Part shown: in pieces, positions 33,492 through 43,464 of the stretch
How positions within the stretch are numbered: the first letter of the stretch is position 1
How the letters are laid out: every line of letters begins with the position of its first letter
Program-made: the position numbers and the translations under genes
Notes under the pieces: generated by a model
Databases searched by the model: none
What the model saw: the letters and a program-made list of their open reading frames with translations, nothing else
Told to the model about the DNA's origin: nothing
From: an uncultured Calditrichaceae bacterium
GTDB lineage: Bacteria; Calditrichota; Calditrichia; RBG-13-44-9
Direction: 5' to 3'
NCBI GenBank assembly: GCA_964452045.1
Contig: CAYVKM010000004.1
Location: forward strand, 2,659-66,658
DNA: 64,000 nt

Positions 33492-35405
33492 ATGCAGCGA
33501 CAATTTGTTATCGGGATGGCGGGTCATATTGATCACGGTAAAACAGCTCTGGTGGAGGCGCTGACCGGAATTAATACGGACAGGTTAAAAGAAGAAAAGG
33601 ATCGGGGAATCACGGTTGATCTGGGATTTGCTCACCTATCGGAAAATGTCACCATTATCGATGTTCCCGGTCATGAAAAGTTGATAAAGAATATGGTGGC
33701 TGGGGTAACGACAATCGATCTGGTTCTGTTTGTGGTTGCTGCTGACGATGGCATCATGCCCCAAACCCGGGAACATCTAGAAATTGTCAATCTGCTTGGG
33801 ATAAAGAATGGCATTTTTGTCATCACCAAAACCGACCTAGCAGATCAGGAATGGATTTCCCTGGTGGAGGAGGAGTTACGGGAATTATTAAAAACTTCGA
33901 ATTTTGCTGATGCTCCAATTTTGAAAGTTTCTGCGCTAAAAAATAATGGAATCGAGGATCTACGCAGAGCCATACAGCAACAGCTGGACAAAATTAGTGC
34001 CCGAAGGGATGACGGTATTTTTCGTTTACCGGTCGATCGGGTATTCAGTAAAGCGGGTTTCGGCAGCATTGTTACCGGAAGTGTTATTTCGGGAAAAATA
34101 AAGACCGGAGAATCTGTTGAGATCCTACCGGAGAAATTAACTGCCAGAATTCGTGGATTACAAAGCCATGATTCTTCAGTGGACATGGTGGAAGCAGGAT
34201 TCCGCGCCGCCTTAAATTTGACTGGATTGGATCATCATCGACTCTACCGGGGGCAGGTGCTGACCCTCCCAGGATTTTATCAGGCAGTTGATCAGTTTAA
34301 TGCCCGATTTTCTTTGCTTGACTCCGCACCGATCTCGATAAAAAATCAAACCCGGGTAAGGGTTCATCTTCATACCATGGAGGCACTGGCCAGAGTGCTT
34401 TTACTGGAAGGTCGAGAAATCTTACCCGGAAATACCATCCTGGCCCAATTCAGATTCGAGAAGCCGATTTATGCCTCTTATAGGGACCGGTTTATTATCC
34501 GGCAATATTCTCCTCAGGTGACGTTGGGTGGCGGTATGGTTCTGGAGACAAATCCACCCAAATTCCGGAAAAAATATCTGGAACTTACCCGATCAAGTCT
34601 GCAGGGACTTCAATCGGATTTGCTTACCGAGAGAATTCGGTCGGTTTTTTCTCTGATAACCTTCAGTCCATTATCATTTGATGAAATACGAATTAAGACT
34701 GGAAGCAGTGAGCAAGTTTCCCGAGAGACTTTAGCGGAACTAGAAGACAAAAAAGAAATATTCCAGACCAGGCGCGCAGGACAATTGGTATACATATCGA
34801 AGGCGCAGAAAGATAAAATTCTTGAGCAAACTGAAAGTAATCTGGAAAAATTCCATAAGCAGTTTCCGGGAAGGACCGGAAAACGCCAAAATGAATTGAA
34901 AATGGAGCTCCAAAAATATTTTCCTGCAGAAGCCCTTGAAACAGTTATTGCTGTGGGGATACAAGAAAAATTATTACGGCAGGAGGGCGATTCTCTTTCT
35001 CTGACCACTTTTGAGTCAGCCCTGAGCGAACCGCAACAATTACTTTTGCAAAAAATTGAGGATATTTTTAAAGATAATTTGTTCACCCCACCTGGCCCTG
35101 AGGAAGTCCGGGAGATTCTAAAATTAAAGGATACGGAGTTCCGGGAATTGCTGGCAATTTTAAGAGAGCGGGGAATTTTGGTGATGGTGGAGGAAAAAAT
35201 ACTTTTTCATCAGGATGCCATCGACAAAATAGTTGAAATTCTTCATGATTATTTTCAAAAAAATTCAGAAATTCGGGTTGGAGATTTTAAGGATCTGATC
35301 AATTCCACCCGGAAGTATGCTATCCCGCTTTTAACTTTCCTTGATAATAAAGGTTATACCATCCGGCAGGAGGATATGCGAATCAAAGGGCCAAAGCTGA
35401 ATTAA
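33492..35405 (+). CDS. selB: Selenocysteine-specific translation elongation factor
   Basis: 637 aa. G-domain [31 protein letters not shown]. Long C-terminal winged-helix extension typical of bacterial SelB. Confidence 0.85.
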
Positions 35406-35430
35406 GTCAATCTACCAGCCTGTCTCCGTT

Positions 35431-36375
35431 TTAATCTCCTTTCAAATTCTTCTTGGCAACCCGGACATTTCTCTTAAATCTATCATATCCTAATCGTCTC
35501 ACCGGTGTACCCTCAAACATTTTTTCATAATCCGTTTGGGATAAATTCTCCAGTTTGGTGAGCAGTAAATCAGCCGGTTTATATCGGGATTGAAAATCCT
35601 TTTCCCGGGTATCCCGGGCAAACCTGATGTTCCACGGGCAAACTGCCTGACAGATATCACATCCAAAAATGTAATTATCCATTTGTTTGGCGAAACCTTG
35701 GTCAATAGTTCCTTTGTGTTCAATAGTGAGATATGAAATACATCGCCGGGCATCCAACCGGAAAGGTTCGGGAAAAGCGTTGGTTGGGCAGGCATCCTGG
35801 CATTTGTGACATTCACCGCAGAAATCAACGGTAATTGGTTCGTCAGGAGGAAGGGGTAGGTTTGTGATAATCCCACCCAGAAAAAAAAATGATCCTTTTG
35901 CTTTAAGAATTAATGTTGTGTTTTTGGCAATCCATCCCAGACCTGCCCGCATGGCGAGCGGTTTTTCCATGATCGGAAAAGAATCCACAAATATTCTGCC
36001 ATTAGTTCCAGGCTCAACCGAAATCAACCAGTTTAGAACCTTTTTAAATTTATTTCGCAAAACTTTGTGATAATCCCGTCCCCGGGCATATATGGAAATG
36101 TTGCCAGAATCTTCCTGAAAACGGATTTTATCCTTTTTCTGATAATAATTTTGTGCCGCAATAATAATCGATTTAGCTTCTTTAAAGAACGAGTTTGGAT
36201 CTGACTTCTGTTTATGTGTATCGGAAAGCCAAGACATGGTACCGTGAAAATTTTGCCGGATAAAACTTTTCAGATCGGCTCCTCCTTTTGTCAGAGGTTC
36301 AGCAGTGGTGATTCCTACCGCATCAAAACCGGTGGACAATATTTGTTGCTTGATTTGACTGGCAAGATCCTTCAT
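35431..36375 (-). CDS. queG: tRNA epoxyqueuosine(34) reductase
   Basis: 314 aa. Two ferredoxin-type 4Fe-4S motifs (CGECHKCQDACP, CDICQAVCP) and the QueG-family N-terminus. Confidence 0.8.
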   Translation of the reverse strand: MKDLASQIKQQILSTGFDAVGITTAEPLTKGGADLKSFIRQNFHGTMSWLSDTHKQKSDPNSFFKEAKSIIIAAQNYYQKKDKIRFQEDSGNISIYARGRDYHKVLRNKFKKVLNWLISVEPGTNGRIFVDSFPIMEKPLAMRAGLGWIAKNTTLILKAKGSFFFLGGIITNLPLPPDEPITVDFCGECHKCQDACPTNAFPEPFRLDARRCISYLTIEHKGTIDQGFAKQMDNYIFGCDICQAVCPWNIRFARDTREKDFQSRYKPADLLLTKLENLSQTDYEKMFEGTPVRRLGYDRFKRNVRVAKKNLKGD

Positions 36376-36513
36376 ATCACAGATATGAGTTCTATGTTAA
36401 AAAGTAAGATTCACTTTTATTTATCAAAACTATGTGTTCAATTGTACTATTTGGATTTGAAAAAGTAAAGAGGATAATTGCGTAGATTCAGAAATACGTA
36501 TCCGGTAATGTCA

Positions 36514-36750
36514 TTAAGTCAGATTTTTAATTCCGGATGTAGCTAAAGATTTAATGATTTTTCCTTGCATTGAGAGTGCCCGTACCGGACAAACCCAGAT
36601 ACATTTGCTGCAGCGGGTACATCCCTCATGATCAATAGATAATTTGCTGATAGACATACCCATAACATTTTCCGGGCAAACACCCACGCAGGTACCACAC
36701 AGGTCACATTTCTGGTCGTCAACTGAAATTTGTAGTAAATTTTTATCCAT
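36514..36750 (-). CDS. 2[4Fe-4S] ferredoxin
   Basis: 78 aa with CDLCGTCVGVCP and CTRCSKCIWVCP motifs. Confidence 0.75.
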   Translation of the reverse strand: MDKNLLQISVDDQKCDLCGTCVGVCPENVMGMSISKLSIDHEGCTRCSKCIWVCPVRALSMQGKIIKSLATSGIKNLT

Positions 36751-36756
36751 CTGATT

Positions 36757-37527
36757 TCAGGAATTCAGGGTAGGAGATGTGGGAATAGCTTTCTTGAAGA
36801 CTTCATTTCCGGACAATATGGATTTCTTCAGTTCCATAAAAATTTCCGGTTTATTGGTAATGATCCCGTCAATTCCTTTTTCGATTAACTCGATCATTTC
36901 CTCCCGTTTATCAACTGTCCAGGCATAGATCTTCCCGCTTCTCTGGTAGAGTTTCCGGATATATCTATTGCTTAATATCCGATATCGGGCATGCAGCGAT
37001 CTCACGGGTTGGCCATTCAGCACCATCATGCTGGATCGGTTGTGAAATATGAATCCCAGGTGAAAGTCTGGATCCAGCAAAGCTATTTTTTTCAAAACCC
37101 AAGGATTAAATGAAGAAATAATAATATTTTCCCGTAGTCCAAAATCTTTCAGGATATTTAGAAGCTTTTCTTCTAAAGCATTTTTACTGAATATCTCTTT
37201 TTTTACGTCTAAATTTATCAGTACTTTTTTTCCCGCCAGGTCCAGGACTTCTTCCAATAAGGGAATTTTTGCTTCTTGTTTTAGCGGTTCAAACAGACGC
37301 ATTCCTTTTAGAGTGGAATAATCCAGTCGGGAGACACTTGAGTGAAAGCTGGTCATACGAAAGGTATTACGGTCGTGAAATACAAAAATTTCTCCGCTGG
37401 TAGCTAACCGGACATCCAGTTCTATACCATCGCAACCTAATTCAATTGCTTTTTCGAATGCCGGAATTGAGTTTTCCGGAGCAAAAGTATGCGCCCCTCT
37501 ATGTGCAAAAACGATAGGATAATTCAA
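36757..37527 (-). CDS. Glycerophosphodiester phosphodiesterase
   Basis: 256 aa. IVFAHRGAHTFAPENSIPAF...ELDVRLATSGEIFVFHD GDPD catalytic motif. Confidence 0.8.
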   Translation of the reverse strand: MNYPIVFAHRGAHTFAPENSIPAFEKAIELGCDGIELDVRLATSGEIFVFHDRNTFRMTSFHSSVSRLDYSTLKGMRLFEPLKQEAKIPLLEEVLDLAGKKVLINLDVKKEIFSKNALEEKLLNILKDFGLRENIIISSFNPWVLKKIALLDPDFHLGFIFHNRSSMMVLNGQPVRSLHARYRILSNRYIRKLYQRSGKIYAWTVDKREEMIELIEKGIDGIITNKPEIFMELKKSILSGNEVFKKAIPTSPTLNS

Positions 37528-37720
37528 ATATGATTCACTTCCGATAGATTATTGAGATAGTCCAGACGAAGTCAAATTATTAGTGTCTTGCTGTAAATTG
37601 ATTAAACATAAAGAACCCGGAATATTTAGTCAAGCTATTTTTCTTTCGATCAATAAATTTCCATGTTTTATGAATTAGTCGTTTTTGAATCTATGACTAT
37701 GTTTTGCTGTCTGGCAACTA

Positions 37721-38503
37721 TTATTTTAGGTAAATGATTTGCAAATCGTGACCAATCTCGACTGTTCCTTTAAATTCTTTTTTTATTTGCTGGACTGGTT
37801 CCACCTTAAAGGTTTCGGGGTATAGATGGGTCAACATTACCTCTTTTACTTTGGCTTGTTTGGCAATTTTTGCCACACTACTGGGGGTAAGGTGTCCGCT
37901 CATAGGATTTTGATCTGGAAATGAGCATTCCAGGAATGCTAAAGTGGAATTCCTGCATAAATTTACTAAAGCCGGGCAATACTCACTGTCACCTGAAAAT
38001 ACAATAACTTTTTCATCGAAGACAAATCGGAAGCCGATGCTTTCGGTATTGTGAACAACCTTTTCCCAGGACAACTGAAATTCGGGAAATTTATAAGTCG
38101 GTTGAACAAGCTCTCGGATCTTGAATGTCCGTTTATACGGATCCAACCAATCTCCGTAGGCATGCCTCATTTTTAGTATAAAGTTTTTCAATCCCGGAGG
38201 ACCCGAGATCTGTAATTCTTCTTCAGAATTATCGGGTGATTTTAAATAATAATAGAGCAGGAAAGGGACCAGATCAGAAATATGATCGGGATGGAAATGA
38301 GTCACAAAGATATAATTCAAATCTTCCGGCATAACCTTGACCAGTTTTAGCTTTTCAAACGTCCCGGGACCGATATCGACCAGGATGTTGACAGATTTAT
38401 ACCGGAGCAGGGTTGAGGCGCAAGAGTGATTTTCATTTGATAATAAAGTTCCTGTTCCCAGGAGCTGAATAAATAATTCCTCATTTGAATTGCGGATAGC
38501 CAT
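37721..38503 (-). CDS. MBL-fold metallo-hydrolase (RNase Z-like)
   Basis: 260 aa. VTHFHPDHISD metal-binding motif. Confidence 0.6.
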   Translation of the reverse strand: MAIRNSNEELFIQLLGTGTLLSNENHSCASTLLRYKSVNILVDIGPGTFEKLKLVKVMPEDLNYIFVTHFHPDHISDLVPFLLYYYLKSPDNSEEELQISGPPGLKNFILKMRHAYGDWLDPYKRTFKIRELVQPTYKFPEFQLSWEKVVHNTESIGFRFVFDEKVIVFSGDSEYCPALVNLCRNSTLAFLECSFPDQNPMSGHLTPSSVAKIAKQAKVKEVMLTHLYPETFKVEPVQQIKKEFKGTVEIGHDLQIIYLK

Positions 38504-38622
38504 ATTAAAATTTCTTTTAATTATTGCGGTAACCAGGTTAATTTAATAAATATTTTTCCGAACATTATCTATACTTTTGTTTTAAATTATTGTATCTATT
38601 TTTACAAAATTAGGGAGTTTAA

Positions 38623-38823
38623 ATGGACAAGGTTACCATTTGGCATAATCCGCGCTGCAGAAAAAGCAGGGAAGGTTTACAATATTTAAAGGATAAGGGT
38701 GTCGAACCCGAGGTTTTTGAATATATGAAAACACCTTTTTCGCCTCAAGAATTAGCAGAGATTATCAGATTCTCCGCACAACGGCTTCTAAAAGATTATG
38801 CGAATATACAAATTCCATGGTAG
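38623..38823 (+). pseudogene. ArsC/Spx-family (thioredoxin-fold) gene, apparently C-terminally truncated
   Basis: 66 aa. VTIWHNPRCRKSREGLQYLKDKGVEPEV matches the N-terminal half of ArsC/YffB proteins (IYHNPxCxxSRxxL). Family members are 115-140 aa. The stop coincides with the start of an AT-rich segment. Confidence 0.45.
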
Positions 38824-39016
38824 CGAAATATGAAATTATTAAAACATATGCTTACTTCGGATACAAAGATTAGCCACTCTATTCAATAGAGATTGAACTA
38901 GTCTTTATATTCCAAGAAGTTTTATAGATAGACTAATATATTGGTCAGCTTAGGATTAAAACTATCTTTAGGGCTTCAGTAAAGATTATAGTTTAGTATA
39001 AGGTACTATTTCGATA

Positions 39017-39424
39017 ATGAAACTATTTCACATAATAATTTTTGTTTCATTTTTGTTGTTAGTTTTATGGCGATTTATGGCCAATTTGCTTTTTGCAGAA
39101 TATTTTGAAGAAAAAATTATTAATATCCCCATACTAAAAGTTCTTGAGAAGAGAGTCTTTAACATTTTGTTATTTGCTCTATATACCTACTATGCTTACT
39201 TATATGCGGAATTATCGATATTTTGGTTATTTATTTGGATTTTTTTTCTTCTGCTATTTATTTTTCAATTGTTTGTAATTTATCTATTTAAGGGGCGGCC
39301 AAGTGAAAATATTAATGTTACAGAAGCGAATTTAAAAAGGTTAGTTAGACATAGAAGAATATTTAGCGCATTTGACTTTTTTATATTAGCAATTTGGATT
39401 TATTCTTGGAGATTCTTGATATAG
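39017..39424 (+). CDS. Hypothetical small polytopic membrane protein in an AT-rich segment
   Basis: 135 aa with about 4 predicted TM helices and a positive-inside loop (KGRPSEN...KRLVRHRR). Extreme F/L/I/Y content reflects the local GC of about 25-30%. Weak ribosome-binding site. May not be a real gene. Confidence 0.35.
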   Translation: MKLFHIIIFVSFLLLVLWRFMANLLFAEYFEEKIINIPILKVLEKRVFNILLFALYTYYAYLYAELSIFWLFIWIFFLLLFIFQLFVIYLFKGRPSENINVTEANLKRLVRHRRIFSAFDFFILAIWIYSWRFLI

Positions 39425-39838
39425 GATACTCTCCATCATTTAATATAATAAGATTATATGTTTATCGTAAACCACAATAGAAAATTCAAAATAGAAAAAC
39501 CTCAAAAGACAAGCCCAAGAAAACATTAATACAATTCCATAAAAATATTAAAATAATTTATTAAGAATATATACAATTCGCCAATTATAGTTAACTGAGG
39601 TTTACTGGTAGTACTGATTAAAATTCGTGATAATTTCACTTAGAATATATAAAGTTATGATTATTGATTTTTTCACCATTGGCGGACAAATAGATTATAA
39701 ATTGAGCTTTTCATATTGAAGAAGAAAAAAATAATTTTTTTAATCAATAAAATATTCAAAAGGAGCGAAAAAGATTTAGCTTGAAATAACTGCCAATTAA
39801 TTTTAATTTTCCATTGCTTTAAATTTCAGCTAGAGGTT

Positions 39839-40396
39839 TTGATGATTCAACATTTCCGAAAATCTATCTTTTTTCTTGTCTTTTTGATTTTTTTATTTGG
39901 TTGTGCAGGTACAAAAAAACAGACCGGTGAGCAACCCCCTTCTGGTGAGAAGATTGAACTGAATGAATCCTTTGATCCGCTTTTGTTAGATGATGAAGAT
40001 ATTAAATTTGAAAAGAAAAGTAAACCTTCGGAAACCATTGCACCGTTAAATCTGCCCCCGGAACAAAAAGCGACAATTCCCATCAACGAATTGGTGGATG
40101 GATTCCGGATTCAACTAATTTCAACAAAAGATCTGGAAAGCGCCACGAAAGCCAAGCTCATCGCCGAAGAACAATTCTCCGACTTACAAATTAACTTTTA
40201 TCTGGAATTCGATTCACCTTATTATAAAGTGAGGGTAGGAGACTTTAAAACTCGTGACGATGCGGAGAGCATCCGCGAGGTTATACGTTCCCGGGGATAT
40301 CCGAAAGCATGGATTGTGAAAACAAAAGTATGGACTCATCCTGAAATCAATCTGATTTCAGACTCCACCGAAGTTGAAACCCCAGATATTGACTGA
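39839..40396 (+). CDS. SPOR-domain lipoprotein (septal peptidoglycan-binding)
   Basis: 185 aa. Lipobox FLFGCAG. C-terminal SPOR repeat (GFRIQLISTKDLESATKAK...YYKVRVGDFKTRDDAE...). Confidence 0.7.
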   Translation: MMIQHFRKSIFFLVFLIFLFGCAGTKKQTGEQPPSGEKIELNESFDPLLLDDEDIKFEKKSKPSETIAPLNLPPEQKATIPINELVDGFRIQLISTKDLESATKAKLIAEEQFSDLQINFYLEFDSPYYKVRVGDFKTRDDAESIREVIRSRGYPKAWIVKTKVWTHPEINLISDSTEVETPDID

Positions 40397-40434
40397 GTAC
40401 TATATATCATCATATATGTCTTTGGAGGCATTTT

Positions 40435-41181
40435 ATGTCAGGTCATTCCAAATGGGCAAACATAAAATTTAGAAAAGAACGGCAGGATGCCGCGCGGGGA
40501 AGGATTTTCACCCGGCTCATTAAAGAAATTACCGTTGCTGCCCGAGTGGGTGGCGGGGACCTTGATGCCAATCCCCGTTTGAGAACTGCCGTTCAAAATG
40601 CAAAGGCACAAAATATGCCCCAGAAAAACATTGAGAATGCAATTCTGAAAGGAACCGGGGAATTACCAGGCATGGTTTACGAAGATGTGGCATTTGAAGG
40701 TTATGGACCCGGTGGAATTGCCATGTATATATTGACCACGACCGATAACCGCAACCGAACCGTGGCTGAAATCAGACATATTCTAAATAAGTATGGTGGA
40801 AATCTGGGTGAAACAGGAAGTGTGAGCTGGGTTTTCGAAAAGAAAGGGCTTATTCGGATAGATAAAGAAAATTATGATGAAGAAGAATTGATGCTGAAGG
40901 CGATAGATGCCGGTGCAGATGACTTCAAAGTAGAAGACGATTACTACGAGGTTTACACCCAGTTTGAAGATCTGAATAAGGTACGATCCACACTGGAAGA
41001 CAGTGGAATTGCCATCGAAAATGCTGAAATTGCTATGATCCCACAGAATGTGATTGAGTTAGAGGGTAAACAGGCAGAACAAATGTTACGGTTAATGGAT
41101 GCGCTGGAAGACAACGATGATGTGCAGAATATCTTCGCCAATTTTGATATCGATGAAAAAATCATGGAAAAAATGCAATAA
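40435..41181 (+). CDS. yebC: YebC/PmpR-family DNA-binding transcriptional regulator
   Basis: 248 aa. MSGHSKWANIKFRK...RGRIFTRL signature N-terminus. Confidence 0.9.
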   Translation: MSGHSKWANIKFRKERQDAARGRIFTRLIKEITVAARVGGGDLDANPRLRTAVQNAKAQNMPQKNIENAILKGTGELPGMVYEDVAFEGYGPGGIAMYILTTTDNRNRTVAEIRHILNKYGGNLGETGSVSWVFEKKGLIRIDKENYDEEELMLKAIDAGADDFKVEDDYYEVYTQFEDLNKVRSTLEDSGIAIENAEIAMIPQNVIELEGKQAEQMLRLMDALEDNDDVQNIFANFDIDEKIMEKMQ

Positions 41182-41196
41182 TGAAGGTATGTTTTT

Positions 41197-41691
41197 TTGA
41201 GAATTCTTGGAATAGATCCCGGGATTAGCACGACCGGGTATGGTGTTATTGAAATAGAATCAAGTGGGCTCAGGTGTCTTGCTTTTGGAGGAATCCGTAG
41301 CTCTTCAAAATTGAAATTCAGTCAAAAACTTAAATCAATTCATCAAGCAGTAAATCAAATTATTCAGGAATTTCAGCCGGACTTTTGTTCGGTGGAAGAT
41401 ATATTTTATCACCAGAATAAAAAAACGGCAATTATTATGGGACACGCACGGGGTGTGGCCATGCTAGCCGCTGCGGTAAACAACATTCCGGTATTCGAAT
41501 ATACCCCCCGGGAAGTCAAGATGTCCATAGTCGGGTCCGGAGCGGCTTCAAAGGTCCAGGTTCAGGCAATGGTAAAAAATATACTTAAAATGCCTGAAAA
41601 ACCGACTCCTGAGGATGCTGCAGATGCATTGGCAGTCGCGTTGTGCCATCATCACCGTTTGAAATTTCAGCAAATCAGGGAGAGGGCTTAA
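41197..41691 (+). CDS. ruvC: Holliday junction resolvase RuvC
   Basis: 164 aa. MRILGIDPGISTTGYGVIE catalytic Asp region. Confidence 0.9.
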   Translation: MRILGIDPGISTTGYGVIEIESSGLRCLAFGGIRSSSKLKFSQKLKSIHQAVNQIIQEFQPDFCSVEDIFYHQNKKTAIIMGHARGVAMLAAAVNNIPVFEYTPREVKMSIVGSGAASKVQVQAMVKNILKMPEKPTPEDAADALAVALCHHHRLKFQQIRERA

Positions 41692-41835
41692 ATCTGTTTG
41701 TAGAGGTTCAGTCCATGGCGTGTTATTTTGCTGGGAAAATTATAAAATAGTTGAAAAATATAACAGTTTGTTGCTTTCGTGTATTTATCCCGTATATTAG
41801 CCTTGTTTGGAAATTACTAATATGCAAATTCCGGT

Positions 41836-42438
41836 ATGATTGAGCAGATTCAGGGAAAACTGATTAAAAAATCTCCTACTTATTGTGTGGTAGATTGTCA
41901 TGGAGTGGGACTTGGTGTTTTTATCAGTCTAAATACCTATGAATCTTTAAATGATAAAAATGAAGAAATCGCATTACTAACGTATTTACACGTCCGGGAA
42001 GACGCGCTTCAGTTATTTGGATTTACCACGGATGACGAAAGAAATATTTTTAGAATGTTGATGAGTATCAGCGGCATAGGCCCAAAATTAGCAATTACTA
42101 TATTATCCGGGCTCAGTGTGCAGGAGCTGGTTGAGGCGATTGCCATAGAGGATTTTATGCAGTTAACTCAAATTCCCGGTGTCGGGAAAAAGACCGCGCA
42201 ACGGGTTGTCCTGGAACTGAAAGAAAAGGTGGCTGCCGGTCTGGAGCCTGGAATCTCCAAGGAATTTCCGAAGTTACCCAGCCGGGAAGGTGATAAGGTA
42301 AATGAAGCATTCCTTGCCCTGCTTGCGCTTGGCTATAAACAGCAGGATGCCCGGAAGGCGATTCATAAAGTGATCCAGAATAATTCTGCGGATCTTTCGG
42401 TTGAAGAGCTGGTAAAAACGGCATTGAAGGAAGTCTAG
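41836..42438 (+). CDS. ruvA: Holliday junction branch-migration protein RuvA
   Basis: 200 aa. MIEQIQGKL...VDCHGVGLGVFIS, and the HhH region GIGPKLAITILS. Confidence 0.9.
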   Translation: MIEQIQGKLIKKSPTYCVVDCHGVGLGVFISLNTYESLNDKNEEIALLTYLHVREDALQLFGFTTDDERNIFRMLMSISGIGPKLAITILSGLSVQELVEAIAIEDFMQLTQIPGVGKKTAQRVVLELKEKVAAGLEPGISKEFPKLPSREGDKVNEAFLALLALGYKQQDARKAIHKVIQNNSADLSVEELVKTALKEV

Positions 42439-42441
42439 CAT

Positions 42442-43464
42442 ATGGAACGAGACGTTATAAGTCCTCGCCCTTTAAGTGAAGATCAGGAATTTGATATTTC
42501 ACTGCGTCCCCGAAATTTGAAAGATTTTGTGGGACAGGATAAAGTCAAAGAAAATTTAAGCATTTACATTGAAGCAGCCAAGCAACGCTCGGAGGCTCTG
42601 GATCATGTATTACTCTATGGTCCGCCCGGATTGGGAAAAACCACACTGGCTCATATCATCGCTAATGAACTATCGGTGGATATTAAAACCACTTCCGGTC
42701 CGGTGCTCGATAAGGCAGGGGATCTTGCCGGACTACTTACCAATTTAAAGGAGTACGATGTTATTTTTATTGATGAGATTCATCGTCTGAATAATGTCGT
42801 GGAGGAATATCTGTATTCTGCCATGGAAGATTTTAAACTGGACATCATGATTGACCGGGGACCAAATGCCCGCAGCATCCAGATTGATCTACCACAATTT
42901 ACTTTGATTGGTGCCACCACCCGGGCTGGTTTGTTGACTTCACCAATGCGGGCCAGATTTGGAGTAGTGTCACGACTTGATTATTATAACTCGGATAACC
43001 TGAAAAGTATTATTTTGCGATCTGCTAAAATTCTGGATGTTAAAATTGATGATGAAGGCGCATTTGAAATTGCCCGACGGTCCCGGGGAACCCCCAGAAT
43101 AGCCAATCGGTTATTAAGGAGAACACGCGATTTTGCTCAGGTCCGTGCCGATGGGAATATCACCAAAGAGGTAGCAGACAATAGCCTGAAAATGCTGGAA
43201 GTGGATGAGCGTGGGCTGGATGATATGGATAAACGTATCATCAAAACCATTATTGAGAAATATAATGGAGGCCCGGTAGGATTGAATACTATTGCGGTTG
43301 CGGTGGCAGAGGAAAGTGAAACAATTGAAGAATTATATGAACCATTTTTAATTCAGGAAGGTTTTATTAAAAGAACACCCAGGGGTAGGGTAGCTACTCA
43401 ACTGGCGTTTGAGCATTTTAACTATACATTTAATAATTATGGATTCCAGGAAAAACTATTTTGA
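42442..43464 (+). CDS. ruvB: Holliday junction ATP-dependent DNA helicase RuvB
   Basis: 340 aa. Walker [12 protein letters not shown] and FIDEIHRL. Confidence 0.9.

Follow-up and report, generated by a model that had tools for sequence, protein, structure and literature searches.

[quoted passage not shown] Immunity genes are situated directly downstream of the C-terminal toxin regions (CTs) of Rhs proteins, and toxin-less, orphan immunity genes are known that are experimentally protective (PMC10539506). Protection of this kind extends to non-self toxins (PMC10539506, PMC10470768, PMC12247911, PMC5361080, PMC3150448). Integral-membrane immunity proteins that counter membrane-depolarising or pore-forming toxins are represented by TsaI, which acts against TspA (PMC9484751).

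Here, a locus that touches on both of these systems is described from an uncultured Calditrichaceae bacterium of sediment (assembly GCA_964452045.1, contig CAYVKM010000004.1). The stretch of DNA that was analyzed, 64 kb in length, is referred to as the window, and its numbering is used throughout. At this locus arsC has been truncated by a replacement, and we consider it probable that the part left behind is an inactive remnant and that the cassette which took the place of its 3' end carries an orphan immunity gene directed against an Rhs toxin.

The truncated gene is a 66-aa ORF at 38623..38823 (+), whose product ends in DYANIQIPW before the stop codon, as the preliminary description of this DNA had reported. 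Its first 54 codons (38623..38784, +) constitute a 5' fragment of arsC, as delimited by protein and DNA alignments, by a blastn end point at 38782 and by a match to positions 1-46 of the 114 positions of TIGR00014 (arsC, glutaredoxin type; NCBIfam). The remaining 12 codons (LLKDYANIQIPW) and the stop codon are read from inserted DNA. With 59.4 bits, the ORF fails to give an end-to-end match at the curated TIGR00014 cut-off of 106.05 bits, while three full-length orthologues (P0002, P0007 and P0030) cover positions 1-114 with 112-131 bits, above the equivalog cut-off. A full-length orthologue also aligns over residues 1-115 with the R773 ArsC structure 1i9d. The preliminary description had placed the ORF in the ArsC/Spx family and had found it to match the N-terminal half only. 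The latter point is borne out by the model positions covered and by the length of the relatives (113-116 aa). The family assignment holds for glutaredoxin-type ArsC, the model that the orthologues pass, but not for Spx or YffB. The fragment does have the thioredoxin-like N-terminal beta-alpha-beta unit in common with the Spx/MgsR and YffB branches of the ArsC superfamily, but it scores far under their cut-offs (13-15 bits with Spx/MgsR models; 14.9 bits and E 0.024 with TIGR01617, whose cut-off is 75 bits), and the full-length orthologues, which reach 49-55 bits with TIGR01617, are assigned to arsC instead. A Pfam search of the ORF returned a glutaredoxin match only, below threshold. The N-terminal fragment (38623-38775) also matches phrog_16693 (unknown function, 132-position profile; E 8e-8), so ArsC/Spx-like proteins occur in phage genomes too; no further phage signal was seen at the locus.

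Relatives of the 66-aa protein numbered 33 in a search of 5.8 billion proteins, and nearly all of them are 113-116 aa in length and carry PF03960. One of the 33 is identical to it (66 aa, present on several contigs); beside this protein, none exceeded 83% identity to the N-terminal fragment. In alignments with the relatives, similarity to the window protein extends up to approximately residue 53-54 and is lost beyond. Cys12, Arg60 and Arg94 are invariant in 15 relatives, and the arginine triad is invariant or near-invariant in the orthologues.

Eight related Calditrichaceae loci (L001, L009-L016), among them L016, a GTDB representative labelled "uncultured Calditrichaceae bacterium", have 80-90% nucleotide identity to the window and its gene order: queG, ferredoxin, GDPD and MBL-fold genes, all on the minus strand, followed by arsC, SPOR, yebC, ruvC and ruvA on the plus strand. 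The comparison of the orthologous locus that had been proposed earlier found in these loci a full-length, 116-aa arsC and an uninterrupted spacer of 119 nt between it and the SPOR gene. The window remnant occupies the orthologous position, with the MBL-fold gene on one side and the SPOR gene on the other. A full-length arsC is also present in a more distant Calditrichaceae MAG (L019) and in 557 relatives across phyla. By this comparison of sequences the short form is the derived state, because the closer relatives, the distant L019 and hundreds of genomes elsewhere have the full-length gene. In L001 the MBL-fold gene upstream of arsC (L001:55-911) was called as two ORFs of 110 and 175 aa in place of one of 260 aa, which is probably a frameshift or sequencing error in that contig.

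Conserved orthologues of about 66 aa, which would have spoken for a naturally short protein, were not encountered. The only other relative of this length, P0022 (L002:334-534), is distant (61% identity) and represents a separate truncation, which breaks at approximately codon 51, within four codons of the window break, and continues into an unrelated tail; its downstream neighbor, by sequence appearance an FtsX-like permease gene, is likewise different. Two further short relatives were noted, P0013 (101 aa, on a 45.8-kb contig) and P0036 (98 aa). Together with P0022 they may reflect repeated decay of arsC in the group, or artefacts of contigs.

The extent of the replacement was determined by blastn of window positions 35000-43000 against the related loci, which gave two blocks every time. 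The left block ends at 38782 (80-85% identity) and the right block starts at 39756 (89-90%). Junction alignments place the left break at 38782-38784, in codon 54 (CGG in the window, CCG in the relatives), and the right break at approximately 39750-39756. Neither block contains another large structural difference over the 8 kb compared. The piece of L016 that is missing from the window (L016:3876-4096) measures 221 nt, of which 189 nt are arsC codons 55-116 and the stop codon and 32 nt are spacer. In its place the window has an AT-rich segment of ~971 nt (38785..39755; GC 0.254), delimited by the blastn break points, the junction alignments and composition, which is absent from all related loci. 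Beyond it, the retained part of the ancestral arsC-SPOR spacer (39756..39838, +) is ~90% identical to the relatives, and the SPOR-domain lipoprotein gene (39839..40396, +; Pfam PF05036, E 1e-9), which directly follows arsC in the relatives and was confirmed by synteny, is intact. By sequence alignment a single change thus sets the window apart from its syntenic relatives, namely ~971 nt of AT-rich DNA for ~221 nt, and the earlier proposal that an insertion or deletion had disrupted the gene, in place of a naturally short protein, is upheld.

GC content in 200-nt windows falls from 0.38-0.41 to 0.23-0.27 between ~38800 and 39840. The AT-rich block is the lowest-GC stretch of the 64 kb (0.26 in 800-nt windows, most others having 0.36-0.50), with a GC content of ~0.25 against a mean of ~0.43 for the window. 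A sharp drop had been described before as lying exactly at the stop codon of the ORF; the drop is present, but the change in homology and GC content occurs ~39 nt upstream of the stop, at codon 54. The low GC content suggests a foreign origin of the segment, and we infer that it was acquired horizontally.

The remnant keeps the genomic position of the full-length arsC of its relatives. Its 54 codons are orthologous to glutaredoxin-coupled ArsC and retain HNPRCRKSREGLQYL with Cys12, and WHNPRCRKSREG, the HNPxCxxSR motif with the catalytic cysteine, is the same in the ORF as in the orthologues. It differs from ArsC in that only 46 of the 114 model positions are covered, with no arginine triad and no C-terminal half: homology stops at residue 54, Arg60, Arg94 and Arg107 are missing from the 66-aa product, and the fold is short of two of its four beta-strands. 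A continuation of ArsC by frameshift was considered and rejected. Neither tblastn with R773 ArsC, a search that had been suggested earlier, nor three-frame translation recovered the C-terminal half in any frame of 38600-39900 or in the rest of the window, and a sequencing frameshift is therefore excluded. Having lost the three arginines along with half of its thioredoxin-like fold, the remnant is most likely an inactive pseudogene. The ORF is a gene remnant and no member of ArsC in the functional sense. Taken alone, a truncated arsC is an ordinary pseudogene, produced by an indel event that is itself ordinary, and it should be annotated as such and not as a short ArsC/Spx-like protein.

The preliminary description had missed that the AT-rich segment carries a gene of its own. 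The ORF at 39017..39424 (+) encodes 135 aa and is a real gene. When 2000 sequences matched in composition were drawn from a first-order Markov model, their longest open frames had a mean of 61 codons and a maximum of 124, and none reached 135. An exhaustive phmmer search of 1.84 billion cluster representatives identified eight full-length, distant relatives (140-154 aa, 26-34% identity, E 5e-9 to 8e-4), and a profile search added one further family member (P0052); a word-indexed protein search with the 135-aa protein returned only the protein itself. The family has in common an FWL motif, a basic RR/RK pair and a C-terminal ILxxWIxSW. Every homologue is AT-rich (GC 0.20-0.31 against 0.34-0.46 in the flanks), as is the window gene (0.26 against 0.43).

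AlphaFold2, run on a small alignment, modelled the 135-aa protein with a pLDDT of 89.9 and a pTM of 0.78 as four long helices and one short helix, which fits a polytopic, integral membrane protein. No fold match to this model was found in the PDB, and the family has no match above threshold in Pfam, NCBIfam, PADLOC or PHROG. A partial match of the window protein to AgrB (PF04647; 18.9 bits, E 0.001) lies below the gathering threshold of 23 bits and is present in only two of nine family members; an AgrB identity was thus rejected, and the match is treated as a compositional one between hydrophobic proteins. With no PADLOC match, a defence-system protein was also rejected.

Between the stop codon of the arsC remnant and the 135-aa ORF lies a leader of 193 nt that contains a long, imperfect hairpin (38859..38911, +; self inverted match at 38855-38916). 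The RNA fold of 38824-39016 has a predicted energy of -41.4 kcal/mol (z = -2.9), and none of 200 shuffles was as stable. The hairpin could be the remnant of a terminator or a regulatory structure. No terminator-like site was predicted on the plus strand between the arsC remnant and the ORF. Because no terminator is predicted and the leader folds more stably than shuffled sequences, transcription of the 135-aa ORF from the old arsC promoter is possible, and we would speculate that it may take place.

Rhs polymorphic toxins are built from a core followed by a C-terminal region, and it is next to genes of this architecture that the homologues of the 135-aa protein were found. Six homologue loci could be read (L096-L101), two of which belong to a single assembly, with a third belonging to a sister assembly. 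In all five with enough upstream sequence (L097, L098, L099, L100 and L101) a gap of 15-39 nt separates the homologue from a preceding same-strand gene that encodes an Rhs core (TIGR03696, E 1e-12 to 4e-20, all above cut-off) and then a variable C-terminal region of 150-250 aa. Only the last 45 codons of the upstream ORF are present in the sixth (L096), and they have an ending of the same kind; the six upstream ORFs resemble one another in closing with a short hydrophobic segment rich in Gly. The C-terminal regions of four of the five are detectably homologous to one another (L097:7236-7985, L098:2-895, L100:3-1931 and L101:1-1074 contain these toxin tips, each followed by a member of the 135-aa family) and have a conserved C-terminal pattern, ...GxxNxWNYFxHIxKGKK...W...G[FY]xxG. 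Of the upstream ORFs tested, none has a Pfam match in this region, nor did any tip match an NCBIfam, PADLOC or PHROG family. L097, L098 and L099 have additional fragments of Rhs core or YD repeats downstream of the homologue, which resembles the layout of orphan toxin/immunity arrays.

The tips and the 135-aa family probably form an undescribed toxin/immunity pair, and neither partner is in Pfam or NCBIfam. The homologues take the position expected of Rhs immunity genes, directly after the toxin. The window gene does not take that position, but it does have the small size and the AT-rich composition; the family has no homology to any described immunity family. No toxin was found upstream of the window gene or elsewhere in the 64 kb, and it is for this reason that the gene is termed an orphan. 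The immunity function is attributed through guilt by association across the six loci. We hold with moderate confidence that the cassette carries a genuine gene, most readily understood as an orphan immunity gene directed at a single family of Rhs C-terminal toxins. The product would sit in the inner membrane and would neutralize one particular Rhs C-terminal toxin delivered by neighbouring bacteria, and the target toxin would probably be membrane-acting.

The comparison with known orphan immunity genes (those of Rhs/T6SS loci, orphan cdiI of CDI systems and the Bacteroidales acquired interbacterial defence arrays) bears on this reading. As in those cases, a small, AT-rich gene is present in the window with no toxin, and its homologues are located directly after Rhs toxin tips. 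Unlike them, it stands alone instead of forming part of an array, it does not terminate an rhs or T6SS locus, it is on no recognizable mobile element and next to no recombinase, and it has been placed within a housekeeping cluster in which the neighbouring gene was destroyed. Its protein family is moreover undescribed, and its host belongs to the phylum Calditrichota. With membrane immunity proteins such as TsaI the family has in common that its members are small, polytopic and encoded beside a secreted polymorphic toxin, and the hydrophobic, Gly-rich end of the cognate tips would be compatible with a membrane target; it differs in that neither its sequence nor its fold resembles an immunity family described so far.

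It is unlikely, in our estimation, that the segment is instead a decayed mobile element (an IS, a MITE or a prophage remnant) that carries the 135-aa ORF either as an unrelated passenger or as a gene for a membrane protein that has nothing to do with toxins. The low GC content, which points to a foreign origin, would agree with such an element, as would the variability of the arsC-SPOR interval within the clade. In the more distant relatives L019 (L019:3995-5544) and L023 (L023:4001-5368) a convergent gene for a cysteine desulfurase (NifS/IscS-like by sequence appearance, 390-437 aa) lies between arsC and SPOR, and the interval is therefore structurally variable in the clade; the insert, considered as a possible remnant of that gene, has no blastn match to either locus. 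In L023, arsC diverges past residue 89 and the arsC and desulfurase frames run together, which looks like a deletion that fused the 3' ends of the two genes. Against a mobile element stands the absence of inverted or direct repeats at the boundaries of the insert. A 9-nt match, AAAGATTAT, with collinear short matches, links the left end of the insert to the ancestral spacer, but it was equalled by 34% of control windows, and a target duplication was rejected on this account. Nor was a transposase or integrase found in the insert, whose sole ORF is the membrane protein, or a second copy of the insert in the window or among ~100 fetched loci. With no boundary repeats, no mobility gene and no extra copy, an IS, MITE or integrative element was rejected. 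A phage origin was rejected as well, since the 135-aa ORF has no PHROG match and no relative in IMG/VR. Rfam returned only sub-threshold eukaryotic snoRNA and miRNA noise for the insert, so that an RNA gene was also rejected, and the non-coding, AT-rich tail of the insert (39425..39755, 331 nt) contains no ORF, RNA family, repeat or stable fold (z = +1.1). Finally, an unrelated passenger is at odds with the position of the ORF homologues, which follow an Rhs toxin tip in five of five informative contexts.

A second alternative accepts the immunity gene and differs from the preferred reading in history only, not in present function. Here the segment would be what remains of a complete Rhs-CT/immunity module, or of a larger rhs locus, whose toxin was later deleted together with the 3' end of arsC. 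Such a two-step history would account for a replacement that left no repeats; in every homologous locus a toxin tip precedes the immunity gene by 15-39 nt, and 232 nt of non-coding, structured DNA lie upstream of the window ORF. A remnant of the toxin tip was sought in the insert and in the window with a profile of the toxin C-termini and by tblastn with full toxins, and none was detected. The reading frame that ends in NILVSLGLKLSLGLQ and a stop codon (38932-38982) resembles the toxin ends by eye but was scored by neither search, and it was rejected as a toxin remnant. We regard this history as improbable.

A natural mini-redoxin, short but functional, or a regulatory fragment kept by selection appears a very improbable reading of the 66-aa protein. 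Its ORF and upstream region are intact, the invariant HNPRCRKSREGLQYL with Cys12 is kept, and the ORF is identical in all sampled contigs. The dN/dS ratio shows no relaxation either: it was 0.4-0.9 for the remnant and 0.36-0.58 for intact orthologues over the same 54 codons, values that are not distinguishable with so few sites, and relaxed selection on the remnant is thus not demonstrated. The identity of all copies, however, means that they provide no evidence of constraint. No orthologue has the short form with this tail, P0022 having another break and another tail; the tail is translated from foreign, AT-rich DNA, and the fragment has lost two of four beta-strands and all three essential arginines.

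The remaining alternative concerns the assembly itself. Seven contigs from JGI and Logan metagenomes of different samples are 99.9-100% identical to the window, and an exact 31-mer scan of metagenome contigs retrieved contigs of the same strain only. The left junction is present in six of these contigs (L003-L008) and the right junction in four (L003, L007, L008 and L102), and every sampled contig of the strain has the short arsC allele. Because independent metagenome contigs carry the same junctions, the junctions are not an assembly artefact. Several of these contigs have shared ends within or close to the AT-rich segment, with L003 and L007 beginning at 38559, L004 and L005 stopping at 39155/39156 and L102 beginning at 39185, which suggests low coverage or graph tangles in AT-rich DNA. 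A single SNP (A>C at 38137, in the MBL-fold gene) separates the window from L004-L006. L102 (Ga0307419_10009779) is without window positions 40556-40587, 32 nt of yebC whose loss would shift the frame; L003, from another sample, has them, and the gap reflects strain variation or else a fault of assembly. The explanation that arsC is truly intact, with a chimeric junction or a stop produced by a sequencing frameshift, could draw on contigs that break in a region hard to assemble, but it is negligible and for practical purposes refuted, given that the left junction is identical in six and the right in four independent contigs from different samples and assemblers, and that the ArsC C-terminal half, whose continuation in another frame had been named as a possible outcome, is found in no frame downstream nor elsewhere in the 64 kb.

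Under the reading that we prefer, a replaced arsC 3' end and a captured immunity gene, a single replacement, or an insertion followed by an adjacent deletion, exchanged the 189 nt of the arsC 3' end and 32 nt of spacer for ~971 nt of AT-rich, foreign DNA. The segment may have arrived by illegitimate recombination after uptake, or within a larger insertion that a later deletion cut back together with the arsC 3' end. We offer only tentatively the further suggestion that the captured orphan immunity gene cost the cell its arsC, and that the promoter and 5' fragment left from arsC now supply that gene with a transcription and leader unit. If this were true, the locus would be a compact example of interbacterial defence selected over a detoxification gene in sediment communities, and it would define a new family of membrane-acting toxins and their immunity proteins.

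The locus provides a precise, population-supported case of replacement by a foreign, AT-rich cassette in Calditrichota, a little-studied phylum, and it has brought to light a rare family of small membrane proteins with about ten cluster representatives among 1.8 billion. Should the immunity role be true, stand-alone immunity genes could be acquired outside rhs/T6SS loci and mobile defence islands as well, and a new toxin/immunity pair would be at hand to characterize.
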